Assembly: GCA_010093705.1 (NCBI GenBank)
Contig: MU006090.1
Coordinates: forward strand, 2,162,022-2,226,021
Origin: Patellaria atrata CBS 101060
Taxonomy: Eukaryota
DNA length: 64,000 nucleotides
Direction: 5' to 3'
Position 1 is the first letter of the stretch. Each line of letters begins with the position of its first letter. The notes under the pieces were generated by a model. It was not told where the DNA came from. It did not search any database and saw only the letters and a program-made list of their open reading frames with translations. The translations under genes were made by a program, and so were the position numbers. Below are positions 50,816 to 59,128 of the stretch, in pieces.

Positions 50816-53800
50816 ATGCACCCTCTAAATCCATTCTTGCGGGCCTTCTTCAGAAGCACACTTCCGTCCCAGTGCTCGCCCGCAGCTCATCACGTATGCA
50901 TCCTGAAGCTTATTGCTTTCCTGGTGACCTGTTAACGTAATATCCAGATCATCCTCGTCCCCACTACAGACGTCCTCTTAGCCTCTCGAGACCGTGAAAC
51001 TAACACATCCTATTACGACCTTTCGACCTCTGAAGAGTTCCTGGCAAGTCATGTTCTGCGTGCACCCGGAGGACTTGCGCCGCAGAGCCATAACAAAGAT
51101 GGATCGAACTTTCGGGATAATAGAGGGAAGGCAAAACAATATTCCACACTGAACGGGCGAACCGTCATTGTCAAAGATGCCTTCGTGTATAGCAACAAGG
51201 GTATGGAGAATTCCTTTACATTCTTGATTATCATCTAATCTACGTGATAGGGTTCAAATCCTTGAATCAAGCTCAGCTGCTACACGATGTTATCTACTAT
51301 CCAGATACCATCGATGCCCAGCAATGGCTAGTATACTACATTTCACGGCCACTCATCGGCACTTACGACCCGGTAATAATTACTCCGGCTTCGATAACGA
51401 CGGACAGAACCTTGGAAAGAAGTGGACTTAAGTCTGAGCCGCGTAACCCGGGACCATCTGCCTCATACTCTCCGCGGAAGAAAGAGGTGAGGTCATTTAG
51501 TGACCTCCTGAACCATTTTCCTATGATCGCAAGACAGATGCACCCTGGCCTTGACCGACTGTTTAAGGAATTTAACAAAGAGCTTGAGAAGTCTATCCCG
51601 TTCTCCCAAGAGCGTTCCAGCACGCCCAAGCTCGCCCGACACAATTCAATCTCATCGGCGCACAGTCTTCCATTCTCTGTACACAGTAGCATATCAGGGA
51701 CATCATCGCATCATCCAACCTCGCTCATTATCGATGACGAGGAGGATATGATGCGAAAATCGCTTGAAACAGCTGTTACTGCCGCTATTGACTTATTCCA
51801 AATGGTAGATAAGCAGCAATTGTCCCTGCTAGGTGCGACTACTGATCTTACCGGGCCAATAGTAGAACGTATGATTGAACGGTATATAGTTGAACAGGTT
51901 CACTCAACACTTCTATTTCCACGAATCTGCTCCATTAGAAGATTTGATGATTTAGATTTAGAGGCACGCATAAGGCAGATGTCTGATATTGACATCTCAC
52001 AGGTCGGCATCACGATCGGGAATGGCCAAAGAGGGAAAAAGGAGTTAGCCATAAGACTTTCCAGGGGTGTTGATGTCTTTAAAAAGATGGCCGTTGCAGG
52101 AAGCCCACAAGAGATGGTAGAGATTTTACTTGAAACTCAGAAGCTTATAACTGCAGCTGAGCCAGTTGTTGACGCGAGCACCAACCGATCAGTCAATGGA
52201 AATACCCCTTCGACCTCAGAGAAGCAAGAACCAATGTTGACAATCAACGCGGATACCCTCGTGTCCTTACTGCTGGTTGTTGTTATACGAAGTCCGGTGA
52301 AGTATCTGCAAGCCCGACTTTCATACATGCGGCATTTCATCTTCATTGATGATGTTGAAAGCGGAGAAATGGGCTATGCGTTGAGTACTTTCGAAGCAGT
52401 CCTCTCTTATTTGTCACGGGACTCAGGACGACTAAGGAGATCGAGTCGAAGAAACAAGCGTCTGTGGCAAGCTGTACGGAAGGGCGATGTACCTGGAATA
52501 CGTAGTATGCTTGATCTAGATTATCCAAACTTTAGCGAGGATGCGGACGTTGACCATTTCGAGCTCAACGAAACCGAGGATATCATGTCCTTTACGACTG
52601 ATCCTCACAGCTTCCGATCTGATGATACCACCTTGAATGGAGCGTTCGGTAATGGATATGAGCACCGACCTAGCCCCCTAGCACATGTCTTTCCATTCCA
52701 ACGATGTCCGACGCCTCCTGTCTCACTGTCACGGCCGAAGGTGAAAAAGAGAGTGTCAATGGACACAGGGAGTATATCAAGCTCATCTATGATATCCTTC
52801 AGATCTCGGACGAATACGATTGAATCTAACGTTAGCGGCATGGAGACAGACACCTCTGTAGAGACCTTGACCCAAACCCAAGGCTTGAATGGCGAGTCTC
52901 TCCTGATGATGGCCGTTGAAAGTGGCCAGGATAATGCTCTTTCCTTTCTATTAAGTCTAGACCAATATTTCTCTCCAAACTTTGTTCCCGATGACTGTAA
53001 TAATGAAGGTTCAACACTGTTTAGTACAGCGGTTCAACTTGGGCATCGAAAGGTAGTAGAGATTTTGTTAGACTACATTATCGATCATCTGGATTCTCCA
53101 GACGCCCTTCGAAATTACTTTGCGATACGGGATTCTCGGGGACGGTGCGTTGCTCATTACCTCTTTAATCAACCTCATCTTATAGGGAAGATTGGTCACC
53201 TGCTTCCCTGGCGATTGCGAGACAAAAACGGACAAACACCCCTTTTCGCGCTCATCCGATCCTACGACCATGATGAATATAAGGCAATGGTTGAAAGCGC
53301 ACTATCCGCTGCCCTCGATACGCAAGGCGATGATAGCGCTCTCCACTTAGACGATCACGTTGACGGCAAGCGAAATACCTTATTACATGCGGTCAACGAC
53401 CCTCAGATTGCATTAAGGCTCTTATACCACTGTGACTCAGACCCCAACGCGGCAAATGACCGTCAGTTTACGCCTCTCATGGTTGCAAGCAAATACGGAA
53501 GAACAGATATCGTCCGTGTCCTGTTTGGAGATGCCCGGGTTGATCTTTTGGCAAGGGACCTTAGAGGTTTAACCGCCGTTGAACTGGCCAAAGACGATGA
53601 GGTTCGCAATCGGATAGATGATCTAGTACTTTTATCCTCCTCATCTGGCCCTGACGGGCGGACAACCACTGTCGTACGATCTTTCTTTGTGGAAGACGGG
53701 TCAGTTAGGCTTGTGATCAAATCCGGTGCCCCAAATACAAACTCCACAATTACGGTTACGACTTGTCGGCGTTCGTTTACGGACTTTGAGAATCTTGCAC

Positions 53801-54783
53801 GGTGGCTTGCCCTGGAACATCCAGCGTCATGGCTACCTCCTGTAGCAGATTTCCTTTCTCCATTCTTGATCCCATCCAAACCTTCACGATCTGTGCTTCG
53901 CGACATGCAGCTTCGTCTTGATAGCTTTCTTAAAATTCTCCTGTCTCATCCAACCTTTGCAACCCATGAGATGGTCTGGGAATTCTTTCTTGTTCCAGAT
54001 ATAGATCCCACCATGCTTGCTGAACGGAGCAAGATGAAAGCAGAGGCCCGTGCCGACCGCGTAAAAGACGAATATACGCCAGTATCAGATGTACGAGACG
54101 TTGAGTTGTTTGTCGCACATGCTAAGGAGTCTATGCGAGGAGTACATCAAGCTACAAAGGGAATCCTACGTCGGACGAATAAAGTCCGTGTTGCAGCCAG
54201 TGATCTGGGTGACGCCGCGCTCATGGCATGCAATGCGCTGTCTACTCTCAATTTCATACCAAGAACTTACATCACAGCCCTAGATCGCCATGCTAAGATT
54301 ATCATGCCAAGCGAATCGTCCCCGATTGTGGACTTCTACTATAATATACATGCAATTAGTACCTGTAGTTCAGCACTCCTAGCGGCACTAAACCGCCCGT
54401 CCGCTCTAATCGGCTCCATGTCTTCCTCGCAAAAAGCAATCGATCGCCAAATGCTTTCTGTGCGGCGCAATGATAGATGGCCTTTAGGACTCATGGACGA
54501 GACGCGACACAGAATGCAGCGTGAGGCAGCTGAAAAGGTCCACAAAGCTGCCACCGAATTGGATAACTTGGGTAAAGAACTCAGATATACGCAACAAGTT
54601 GTTGCAGGTGAGCTTGCTAGTTGGCAAGATAGGAGAATAGAGATGGGCCGTAAAGCGGTTAGGGAGTTCGCGAAGCGCATGGTTGTTGTGGAAAAAGCGA
54701 AGCTGGAAAGTTTGAGGCGGACGTTAAGGGGCCTACATAATGGGGAGGACAATGGAGACGTCTATAAGAGCACGATCAAGTGA
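50816..54783 (+). CDS. VPS9 GEF + ankyrin repeats + PX domain protein (UPF0507/Vrl1-like); exons 50816-50893, 50948-51200, 51251-54783
   Basis: MHPLNPFLRAFF start; VPS9 INADTLVSLLL...GEMGYALSTFEA; ankyrins (GQTPLFAL, FTPLMVASKYGR); PX RRSFTDFENL...HPTFATHEMVWEF; coiled C-terminus. Confidence 0.9.
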
Positions 54784-55113
54784 TAATGAAGGGACAAAGT
54801 AGGTATAATGGTAATTGAAGAAGCGCCCGTGCGGACATGCAAGACATTGCATTATGGGTGTAGAGTATAGCTGGCGTTGGGTGGGCCTTAGTGAACACCC
54901 AAGGGTATAGGTTGACATATCCTTTGATTTACTTCGAGTAGAACGCTTGCTGTTGTATGAATATTAAGTTATCTTTCTATAGGTAGCATCCAAAGTTCCC
55001 TCAAGTGTAGACAATTGTCGGTAAGACTAAAAAGAAATATCACCAATCTCCAGCGGGCATTCAGCCTAATTCAATCTATGTTCTACATTCTATACTCTAC
55101 ATTCTTGAGAGCC

Positions 55114-55120
55114 AAAAAAA
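55114..55120 (-). terminator. Pol III oligo-T terminator of the tRNA-Trp gene
   Basis: T7 run on the minus strand, 22 nt downstream of the discriminator base. Confidence 0.75.
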
Positions 55121-55141
55121 GACCCAAGAAACAAAATTAAT

Positions 55142-55278
55142 TGAGGATGATGTGATTTGAACACATAGCCTTCAGGAAATCCCATATTACTGGAATCTGA
55201 CGCCTATCACCTTAGTTAGTTACGACCTGTTGCAAGAAAGAATGAATTAAACATACGCTACCATTGCGCCACACCCCC
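55142..55278 (-). tRNA. tRNA-Trp: tRNA-Trp(CCA) with two introns: a 53-nt spliceosomal-type insert 55256-55204 (between positions 23 and 24) and a 12-nt canonical intron 55189-55178 (37/38)
   Basis: Minus strand reads GGGGGTG TG GCGC AATGGTA GC[53 nt]GC G TCAGA TT CCA G[TAATATGGGATT]T CCTGA AGGCT ATGTG TTCAAAT CACAT CATCCTC A. This gives a 72-nt cloverleaf with intact A and B boxes and one A31.C39 mismatch. Confidence 0.9.
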
Positions 55279-55980
55279 AAGACGATAATTCTTTGAGCGG
55301 GGTAAATAATATATTTAAAATTTATTTTGGCTGAAACCGGATATCAAAGCAATCCTAAACTGCTCTACTTCGAGTAGGATCCCGGTTATCAGGGCGATTA
55401 TATAATAAGGAAGACCTCACCTTAGCACCACCAGGTAGGATTTTACTGATTTGTAATAAATTCTACACTTCTACAGGGCATTCATCAAAACTCCCTCTGT
55501 CTGATTACGCAAACATTCCCTTACAATAGGTCTAACATTGAATACGGGCTCCTAGTCCTAAAGGTTCCTACTGATTACCCGCTTTCAGAATGTCTTTTTA
55601 CAAGAAGGAAATTGTTCTCGATAATAATCACAATGCAGTGTGGATGATGCTCAGCCCCCAACACACCTACGGCTAGATCATGCAGCTTCCTCTGTTCAAA
55701 GAGGGATTTCTAGAGCTGATTCGTTGCTCCTCGAAGCAGGAGTATCGCTCAGGGGTTTGTCAGGTTGGAGATCTGTGCTGCTGCGCCGATGGATCAAGCA
55801 GAGGCTCCGTAGCCAATTTTCCTTTAACCGCGATACTTGACTTCAAAGGTAGCATAGAAGAAAAATATATTTGAAGAGGTTCAGGGAAGCTGTTTATATG
55901 GTAACAACTTGAGGTAATTCTATGACTTCGAAATCTCCTAGTCCTATCGTTAATATAGTGACGCAGGGCTTCTCTACATC

Positions 55981-58900
55981 ATGTCCGGATTCTTCCTTCA
56001 GAAAACGACACCGGCCGCAATTCACGCCGTAGCAGAGTCAAACTTCTCTTTAAACCACATGAACTTTGACTTCTCGTTGATCAAAATGAATTATCCCGTA
56101 GAGCTTCAACCATTGGAAAACCTCCTCTCCAGCCAACGTCGCGCCTCAGCAGAGAACGGATATTTCCATATTCTGGCTCGAAGGCTAGGAGCTTTAATTG
56201 ATGATGTTCTTCCCGAAGTGCCGGTTCTGCTCAAGGCTTACGGTACCCGGGCGAGCGAAATAGCGCAGAACGCATCGGTTGCCCAAGGGAAGTCAAAAAG
56301 CATTGTAGAGGGCCTTTTCGCGACTCAGATAGGCGTCGACAGTACTACGATAGGGGTTACAGCGACTAGCGGGATGTCTGCTCTTCGGATGCATCTTCTA
56401 GCATGTTTACTAGCCAGGGTTTGGTCTCCTCAAAAAGCAACTGCTATATGCTTGAGCTTGTTCAGTATCGTCAGAAGACAATCATACAGTCCGCTGAAGA
56501 TGAAGGGATGATAAATAATTCTATGGCATACGCGGCCGCTTCACAGATTATCGATATAGCGGTCCTTGCTGAGTGAGATGCGAGCGCAAGAGCATGGCTT
56601 GAGATTGCTGATCGAGCAAAAAGAAAACAGCAAATTCAGGCAAAACTGGTCGTTGACAATTTATCTGCTTGGTAAAACAGATTGCGGAGCATGAGATTCC
56701 ATCGACATCTAAAGAGCAGTTCAAAGACGACCTATATCGTAACATCATCTCAAACTTCATCTTAGCCCTTTCAACAATGGAGAAGCTTGTGAAGGGTCAA
56801 CCGCAAAGAATTCAGACAGGAGGTGTTCTCCTGGCTTTTCTTTCCTGGCACATCTATCCCGATCTTGTGGTATTAGGCATGAAGACCACCGATATTGTTC
56901 AAGCGGATTCGCTTGTCAATTCGGGGGGTGTTATCACAATCGCAATCGCTGGGCATGACCCAAATCCAAGAGGAGATTCTAATGAATTGCCTTGGGCGTA
57001 CTGCTCGCTATCACTTTCAAGCATCAGATACTATGGTCTCTACGCCGGGATGAGAACGAGTACATTCGACTCCACACGACTCTCAATTACTCAACTACAA
57101 CTAGTCGCTTTTGGAAGTTTTATGAAACCGGCTTGCGTGACTGATCTTATCTTGTATGCCAAGATTATCAGGAGAATTTATACCGTACTTTACAGTGAGC
57201 TTCTATTGGAGGCAAAAGGTATAAAAGCTAAGAACATGTGTACCATCAAAGACCTGGACGGCCGCCTTGATACTGTCATATTGGCTGCAGAGGATACATA
57301 TCATGAACCGCATAACTGTCTATCTAGGGCGAAAATCGATGTTCTAAGGTTACTCCATGGGTTTCGACAAGGGTTGAACTTTCTTCTTTCGGATGATGCT
57401 CATGAACTAGCTGAAGCAATGAAATTAGTGAATTACGGGGTTCGTCATGCTTATGGATGGTTGGGAAATGATGAGGGGAGATCCATAACTGATGTATTGG
57501 GCCTCTCCGATATTAGTAAAGTTTTGCCAGCGGTCAAAACACCTAAGTCCAGGGTAGAAATACTGCGATCTCTCTATCACCGATACGAGGGGACTCTGAT
57601 ATAGCTGTTATTCGTTACCGTCCGAACGAAGGGGGTGGGGGTTATACGAGCGCCAACTCAACCACCGACACAGTCACGGACGGATGATATGAGTTCTTCA
57701 AGGGCATCAAGAGAAAGAGAAGCAGCGATGCTGACGAAATCCATCCCGACGAAACTCCCAACAAACGAGCTTGCCTGGAGGAAGTTACTAGCATTGAGCC
57801 CCCGTGGAACTAAGATTGGGTTTTCATGCAAACTCAACAGCCCACGTTTTCACATAGTCCCAACAGACCTATGAATGAAGCAGAGCTCTTCGAGACCCTG
57901 ATAGAGGAAGGTGGACATGGTTTTGAAGATAAAGAAATGGTATTCCATGACTTCTTTTATGGGAATCCGACTTTTGCGGCTGTTTATCGCGTTAGAAATG
58001 GCAACAGTTATACTCTGGATCAGAAGCATAGCATGGACGAGGCTACTATCCTCCCATTAAATATGCTTGATCACCTTCTTGGATACAGATATGTTGGATA
58101 TGGAGACGCTTTCCATTACGATTATGAGCTTCATGCGTAAACAGGACCGCATCAAAACTTCTTTACGTTTATTCGGACGGATTTCCGCATATTACGAGGA
58201 GTACCTACCAGAAGCAACCGTCTCAATGCGTGCCATCACAAGGTCCATATATCAAAACGATTTTGCTAGTGGAGTGCTCAGCGGACTAGAAGGCCCTACT
58301 GATCTAGAGCATATCCACACCAAAGAGAACCGGAGTGACCCAGAGGTCAGAATATTTTCGAGACCATTGACAAGCACCCAAGCATTCTTGTGTATTCTGT
58401 ATTTTGAATCTGGAACAATTAGCGCGTTAGAGGAAAAACTAGAAAGGGTTATGTCTATTTCAAGCTAGAACTCGTTGTTTGTAGCGAAGAAGCTCCTGAG
58501 TGATCCATTTCCACAACAAAATATAAGTAACGATGCAGTCGAACATGTGGTAGGGAATGTGGGAAAGCAAGGTATAGCGCTACTGGCTCCCCCAGAAAAA
58601 CCTGAAGTGCGGCAGCATGCGATTGGAGAATGGCATTACAGCACTCATACCAGATTCGATGGCTTAAAGGGGAGCGGGCTTTTTGATGACACGTCATTAC
58701 ACCTTTCCTTTACAGGCTACGAGGTACCGTTGCAACTTGGGAGCAATAACATCCGCGGGAAAGAGGCGTACTTCCTGGAGACCAGGCTAGCGTTGAATGA
58801 TAAACATCATTGGGTAGGTGACCTGGATATTCTCAAAGCCCTCGACGACATCAAGACCGTAAAAGGCTTAGGAGCAGTGTCAGGGTTGTGCGGTCACGAT

Positions 58901-59128
58901 CCATCATATTCAATGGCAAATATCGAAGCAGCTGTGACCTCGATTGATTGCTGGGAGGAGCTTTTGGACGCACCGGACGGTGTAATGGTCCTTCGCGCAG
59001 ATTCGTCTTGGATGGCTCGTCTGGGAGCTGTGAGCATCGCGCATCAAAAACAATATATGTGCAAATACCTCCCAACTTGGGAAGAAATTTGTTGGACATG
59101 CGTAATGGAAGCAGTGTCTTCGTACTGA
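55981..59128 (+). pseudogene. Fragmented ~1000-codon gene of an uncharacterised fungal protein family
   Basis: Consecutive same-strand ORF pieces (55981, 56669, 57826, 58067, 58475) are broken by frameshifts and stops rather than introns. Family-like motifs NFDFSLIK, ARRLGAL, LSWHIYPDL, VGNVGKQGIALL, SLHLSFTGY, WVGDLDIL and WMARL. Confidence 0.75.

Follow-up and report, generated by a model that had tools for sequence, protein, structure and literature searches.

In the window, by which we mean the whole 64,000-nt stretch of Patellaria atrata CBS 101060 DNA analysed here (contig C2, GenBank MU006090.1, C2:2162022-2226021, in a genome of 28.7 Mb in 127 contigs), a tRNA-Trp(CCA) gene with two interruptions is read on the minus strand at 55278-55142. 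The shorter interruption is a canonical 12-nt tRNA intron at position 37/38. The longer one, 53 nt in length and located in the D-stem, is by its donor, its branch point and acceptor and the exact restoration of the host upon removal an intron of the U2 spliceosomal type, as judged from sequence. It is likely that the gene is a working one, that RNA polymerase III (Pol III) would make its RNA, and that the spliceosome would act on it before the tRNA endonuclease does. That maturation of this tRNA would depend on the spliceosome at all, whichever polymerase makes the precursor, is very probable. The locus appears to be the only tRNA-Trp gene of the genome.

The tRNA-Trp gene and its 53-nt insert

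The locus is matched by Rfam RF00005 (37.8 bits, E 3.5e-5). Exon 1 (55257-55278; this and all the following parts are on the minus strand) comprises the 22 nt of tRNA positions 1-23 and contains the A box (55271-55261). It is followed by the 53-nt intron of the spliceosomal type at D-stem position 23/24 (55204-55256), after which exon 2 (55190-55203, 14 nt) supplies positions 24-37 including the anticodon CCA (55193-55191). The 12-nt intron (55178-55189) separates it from exon 3 (55142-55177, 36 nt), which covers positions 38-73 and carries the B box core (55162-55154) and the discriminator base A73. An A+T-rich stretch, possibly acting as a TATA-like element, lies 25-50 nt upstream of tRNA position 1 (55303-55328), and the 3' trailer (55114-55141) has T-runs resembling a Pol III terminator. 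Accordingly, the features of a type 2 Pol III gene, i.e., A box, B box and T-run terminator, are present. All gene parts named in the original prediction (the 53-nt GT-AG insert, the 12-nt 37/38 intron, the two boxes, the upstream TA-rich element and the terminal T7) could be located on this strand; to the terminator, T7 at 55120-55114, we add a T4 run at 55136-55133 that precedes it.

Gene-finding software handled the locus poorly. ARAGORN missed the gene when the window was scanned, and with introns allowed it called Trp with one wrong intron of 54 nt. Once the 53-nt insert had been deleted in silico, the same program reported Trp(CCA) with the 12-nt intron. The latter is an ordinary 37/38 intron: it begins one base 3' of the anticodon, has a bulge at its 3' site, and its TGGGA (55184-55180) pairs with TTCCA of the anticodon loop (55195-55191), giving four of four core pairs including the T32-A anticodon-intron pair.

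Fungal introns of the U2 type have the donor GTRNGT and the branch motif CTRAY, the latter a short distance ahead of an acceptor YAG. The donor of the 53-nt insert, GTATGT, fits this consensus, and the same start is shared by eight of the 32 motif-defined GTANGT introns in the DNA of this genome. Its branch motif, ACTAAC (55220-55215), places the branch A (55216) 12 nt before the end of the acceptor TAG, where motif-defined introns usually have 9-14 nt. The frequencies of donor, branch and acceptor among 752,096 segments of 53 nt taken from the genome's DNA multiply to 2.5e-6, this value being a product of separate frequencies, with two equivalent registers of the insert possible. All three signals together occur in ten of these segments, several being the one tRNA-Trp insert itself, sampled more than once.

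The boundaries of the insert were also approached from the side of the tRNA. All 71 possible deletions of 53 nt, the sole length tried since only this length yields a 72-nt tRNA, were ranked with a tRNA-Trp profile blind to splice signals. The top two deletions give one and the same product, and one of them runs from GT to AG, so that the exact GT..AG removal leads to the best 72-nt tRNA-Trp. The longest T run within the insert is three. In the original prediction the absence of longer runs was connected with Pol III transcription; as a sign of selection it turned out to be uninformative, because the tRNA-Thr insert described below has a T4 and 28 of the 34 motif-defined short introns also do without one, a set that is partly chance, as shuffled DNA gave 11-23 such introns.

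Two public contig sets of DNA-like character agree with the window at every position from 53500 to 57000; neither shows a spliced exon joint, and they are possibly the source of the assembly and hence not independent of it. On the plus strand, a frame of 1196 aa (51193-54783) with VPS9, ankyrin and PX domains ends 360 nt from the 3' end of the tRNA-Trp gene. Just upstream of the gene, the plus strand at 55954-59128 holds several long frames, two of which were scanned and had no Pfam match.

Similar inserts in other Pol III-type genes

A GT-AG insert was seen in four of 45 tRNA genes (39 in our inventory and six from later searches), namely those for Trp, Thr, Ile and Leu. The insert of tRNA-Thr(AGT), 58 nt in length (C3:1733640-1733697), occupies the same site as in Trp, 23/24, while tRNA-Ile(AAT) has 50 nt at 25/26 (C31:85748-85797) and tRNA-Leu(TAG) 59 nt at 31/32 (C2:1665161-1665219). 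In addition, the U6 snRNA gene, whose ACAGAGA box is intact, has a GT-AG intron of 49 nt that contains a B-box-like sequence (C1:675384-675432). In the Thr, Ile, Leu and U6 inserts the branch motif lies 9-12 nt from the acceptor, and each of the four insert-bearing tRNA genes also has a 37/38 intron. The Thr, Ile and Leu genes were miscalled by ARAGORN and turned into normal genes when the insert was deleted; T7 runs are also found 3' of the Thr and Leu genes. Searching with longer inserts revealed no additional tRNA, and a tRNA-His gene with a D-stem insert did not appear in any of three pattern searches.

The tRNA-Ile(AAT) gene has an insert-free paralogue on the opposite strand about 1 kb away (C31:86854-86941; the pair spans C31:85722-86941). 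Spliced Ile and its insert-free twin are identical at 84 of 88 positions, the differences being one compensatory acceptor-stem pair and two positions in the 37/38 intron. For Thr(AGT), an unlike insert-free isodecoder also resides in the genome, and among the tRNA genes seen there is no second Leu(TAG).

Beyond the splice signals the five inserts are unrelated in sequence, and a DNA search of the genome found the tRNA-Trp insert to be single-copy. Introner-like elements are mobile introns present in many copies. Such an origin was considered and rejected, as near-identical copies were not found, the insert has one match in the genome, and the five inserts are alike in their signals only (local scores 8-16).

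A second U6-like copy (C1:639983-640079) is intronless and has an altered ACAGAGA box together with other changes; it is perhaps a pseudogene or a U6 variant. If this copy is dead, as it may be, there is at least one Pol III RNA that has to be spliced in this fungus.

Maturation, integrity of the gene and alternative explanations

The proposed route has four steps. Directed by the internal A and B boxes, Pol III would transcribe the gene as far as the T run. The major spliceosome would then excise the 53-nt intron in the nucleus, as its signals and the precedent of U6 in fission yeast suggest. This would restore the D-stem and make the L-shape possible, with end trimming and CCA addition taking place around then. 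Lastly, tRNA endonuclease and ligase would take out the 12-nt intron, as is to be expected from the specificity of the endonuclease and its location in yeasts. The nuclear spliceosomal step is placed before the endonuclease step because the tRNA splicing endonuclease (TSEN; SEN in yeasts) is described as binding the D-arm and the acceptor stem (PMC10485636) and as sitting on mitochondria in both budding and fission yeast (PMC10275265). By analogy, this order is well founded, the location of SEN in filamentous fungi being an expectation. It had been argued earlier that the D-stem intron must go first since SEN, RNase P and RNase Z all read the folded tRNA body; for SEN the binding of the D-arm is consistent with this, while the part concerning RNase P and RNase Z is weak. 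Energy folding gave no information on the order, for the cloverleaf was not attained even by the fully spliced tRNA-Trp, whose acceptor stem had a probability of 0.03 at 37 C.

The spliced precursor might instead be a capped transcript of RNA polymerase II (Pol II), for example one that starts divergently at the promoter of the plus-strand gene near 55954, the tRNA then being cut out of it by RNase P and RNase Z. Indeed, spliceosomes normally act on Pol II transcripts, and the A and B boxes, listed as intact in the original prediction, are no independent evidence of Pol III use, since tRNA structure also fixes them. In the same direction points a preprint according to which spliceosome-dependent reporters cannot monitor Alu RNA made by Pol III (bioRxiv 10.64898/2026.09.26.754642). 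The T7 terminator and the A+T-rich upstream stretch of the Trp gene, however, speak for Pol III, as do the T7 runs of the Thr and Leu genes. In this genome, moreover, the intact U6 gene has an intron of this kind with a B-box-like sequence, as is reported for Schizosaccharomyces pombe (PMC5855946), and no minus-strand frame of at least 120 aa runs across the tRNA-Trp gene. We consider a Pol II origin of the precursor unlikely.

It is likewise improbable that the insert killed this copy of the gene and that the real tRNA-Trp gene lies outside the assembly or has diverged beyond recognition. Against this speak, among other things, the condition of the exons and the search for a second gene. For comparison, metagenomes were scanned for the Trp anticodon and T arms, positions 31 and 39 being left free, which gave at least 121 stretches with 128 matches; all statements on relatives given here hold among the matches listed. 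After removal of contig-end cases and merging of duplicates, 75 usable genes were left, or 65 under a slightly different key. Four genes of 71 nt were omitted from the 65-gene set, and 54 distinct mature tRNA-Trp sequences served as the profile.

In spliced tRNA-Trp 20 of 21 stem pairs form, a count more frequent than any other among the relatives (34 of 54), and all 19 conserved positions have the correct base. The A31.C39 mismatch, formerly regarded as the only flaw of the gene, is a family trait, found in 46 of the 54 mature sequences of relatives; among the 18 that come from genes with a 37/38 intron, 17 have it. Likewise, G2.U71 is present in 19 of 54 relatives and in 14 of those 18. The acceptor stem is unlike that of most relatives on both strands, yet it is still paired, and the closest relative is identical at 62 of 72 positions. 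Related Trp genes carry 37/38 introns similar to the 12-nt intron. No relatives bearing the longer, spliceosomal-type intron came from prokaryotic genome contigs or viral contigs, where none are expected.

Five genome searches of different design revealed no other Trp gene. A DNA search of the genome and a pattern search with the 3' half found the locus alone. The 5'-exon pattern, with three mismatches allowed, had two further matches, both Arg tRNAs, and a looser 3' pattern had one, without a T-stem. A generic D-loop/CCA/T-loop pattern, which recovers 87 of 89 related Trp genes, gave 19 matches in the genome against 24 for a reversed control, and 18 of the 19 are not Trp tRNAs. UGG itself is in normal use, with eight codons in the neighbouring frame. 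With undecayed exons and no second Trp gene among the results of these searches, it is unlikely that the copy is dead, and the earlier view that the gene looks maintained is supported. Furthermore, a random insert would not have a donor, a branch motif and an acceptor placed precisely at its ends, and the genome has five such inserts, one of them in the intact U6 gene.

Several observations nevertheless weigh against a working gene with a spliceosomal intron. The tRNA inventory is a lower bound, with 63 of 1050 candidates scored, and no gene for Tyr, Phe, Pro or Glu was recognized in it; given this incompleteness and an assembly in 127 contigs and with gaps, a missed Trp gene is possible. Divergent isodecoders do exist in this genome, as the two unlike Thr-AGT genes exemplify, and exons would show no decay if the insertion were very recent. 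The profile score of spliced tRNA-Trp, 92.6 bits, exceeds that of only 11 of the 54 relatives, which were scored in-sample. The insert is found in none of the 75 usable related genes, all contiguous at this site, so that it would be restricted to a lineage, unless close relatives are unsampled. Finally, the donors of the Thr and Leu inserts (GTAATT and GTTTGT) are less than ideal.

The inventory also contains candidates whose isotype calls by ARAGORN are off. Inspected by eye, a candidate called Glu (L015:1501-1592) looks like another Gly(CCC) gene, unlike the first, whose 19-nt intron lacks the usual anticodon-intron pair, and one called SeC (L036:243-358) looks like a Leu(CAG) gene in which the 37/38 intron is long; several further isotype calls are off as well. 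Four repeat copies (L246, L252, L253 and L255) have a T-loop-like hairpin; most of the differences among them are C-to-T and G-to-A changes of the kind expected from repeat-induced point mutation.

The last alternative, in which the insert would be a non-canonical tRNA intron and the tRNA endonuclease would cut it at a bulge-helix-bulge (BHB) motif, as in red-algal D-arm introns, could invoke the D- and T-arm introns known in Cyanidioschyzon merolae tRNAs (PMC3978253) and core helices of three of four pairs in one register of the Trp insert and four of four in the Thr insert (two wobble pairs in each), but is very improbable: the other register of the Trp insert gives zero of four pairs and the Ile insert zero to one of four, the outer helix of the Trp insert has one of five pairs against four of five for the true 37/38 intron, all inserts have mRNA splice signals that the endonuclease would not need, and yeast SEN is described as measuring from the mature tRNA body (PMC10275265). 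The motif with its flanking helices is thus not formed, and the BHB identity of the 53-nt insert was rejected.

Known systems and biological meaning

The sole U6 gene of S. pombe carries an intron which the spliceosome takes out and which holds the B block (Tani and Ohshima, 1989, cited in PMC5855946), and U6 introns occur in many fungi (Canzler et al., 2016, as cited in PMC5855946). Like these, the 53-nt intron is a short GT-branch-AG intron in a small Pol III-type gene, with unrelated sequences between genes and lineage-specific gains. The host, however, is a tRNA, whereas theirs is a spliceosomal RNA close to the active site, and the tRNA transcript also needs the tRNA endonuclease. The U1, U2 and U5 snRNAs of Rhodotorula and the rRNAs are products of Pol II or Pol I. 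Spliceosomal introns in these Rhodotorula snRNA genes and in ascomycete rRNA genes (Takahashi, 1993, 1996; Bhattacharya, 2000, cited in PMC5855946) are likewise mRNA-type introns in abundant structural RNAs, but their hosts are not tRNAs.

Among tRNA introns, the 12-nt intron is an ordinary member of the canonical 37/38 class by its position, its anticodon-intron pair and the similar introns of related Trp genes. The 53-nt insert differs from this class in its position, in having mRNA signals and in the absence of the BHB motif. The BHB introns of C. merolae, as presented in PMC3978253, resemble the present case in the interruption of the D-arm, the presence of several introns per tRNA and ordered processing, but there the endonuclease cuts a structural motif, whereas the Trp insert lacks this motif and has spliceosomal signals.

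In a search of a full-text literature collection with few subscription journals, no spliceosomal intron in a tRNA gene was described in a title or the opening of an abstract, and the reviews PMC13149111 and PMC12530127 treat tRNA splicing as independent of the spliceosome. Spliceosomal introns in small non-coding RNA genes are already known, and it is probably the apparently essential, single-copy tRNA-Trp as their host that would be new.

The original prediction went further and proposed that the intron couples the supply of Trp-tRNA to spliceosome activity. Nothing shows regulation, dependency alone being implied, and it is improbable that translation would be tuned in this way, an idea that finds no support in our data. 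Tolerated gains account better than a control circuit would for the unrelated inserts at several sites and for the Ile twin that has none. Most likely, the 53-nt intron is one of these gains, tolerated and restricted to a lineage, and does not act as a regulator. Its entry by reverse splicing followed by reverse transcription, as proposed for U6 (PMC5855946), is plausible by analogy.

Since ARAGORN missed the Trp gene in the window and miscalled its three sister genes, fungal tRNA sets may be undercounted. On the present sequences it is rather probable that, in some filamentous ascomycetes, there is a class of tRNA introns, so far undescribed, which the major spliceosome removes, with D-stem position 23/24 (Trp and Thr) as a recurrent insertion site, and that the reading of every UGG codon would depend on two splicing machineries acting in turn. 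If so, the rule that tRNA splicing is independent of the spliceosome would be broken by an essential tRNA whose gene is apparently single-copy and has an mRNA-type intron, and the action of the spliceosome on Pol III RNA would reach beyond U6. Such a gene would also provide a small natural substrate for studying the splicing of uncapped RNA and the entry of introns into abundant non-coding RNAs.
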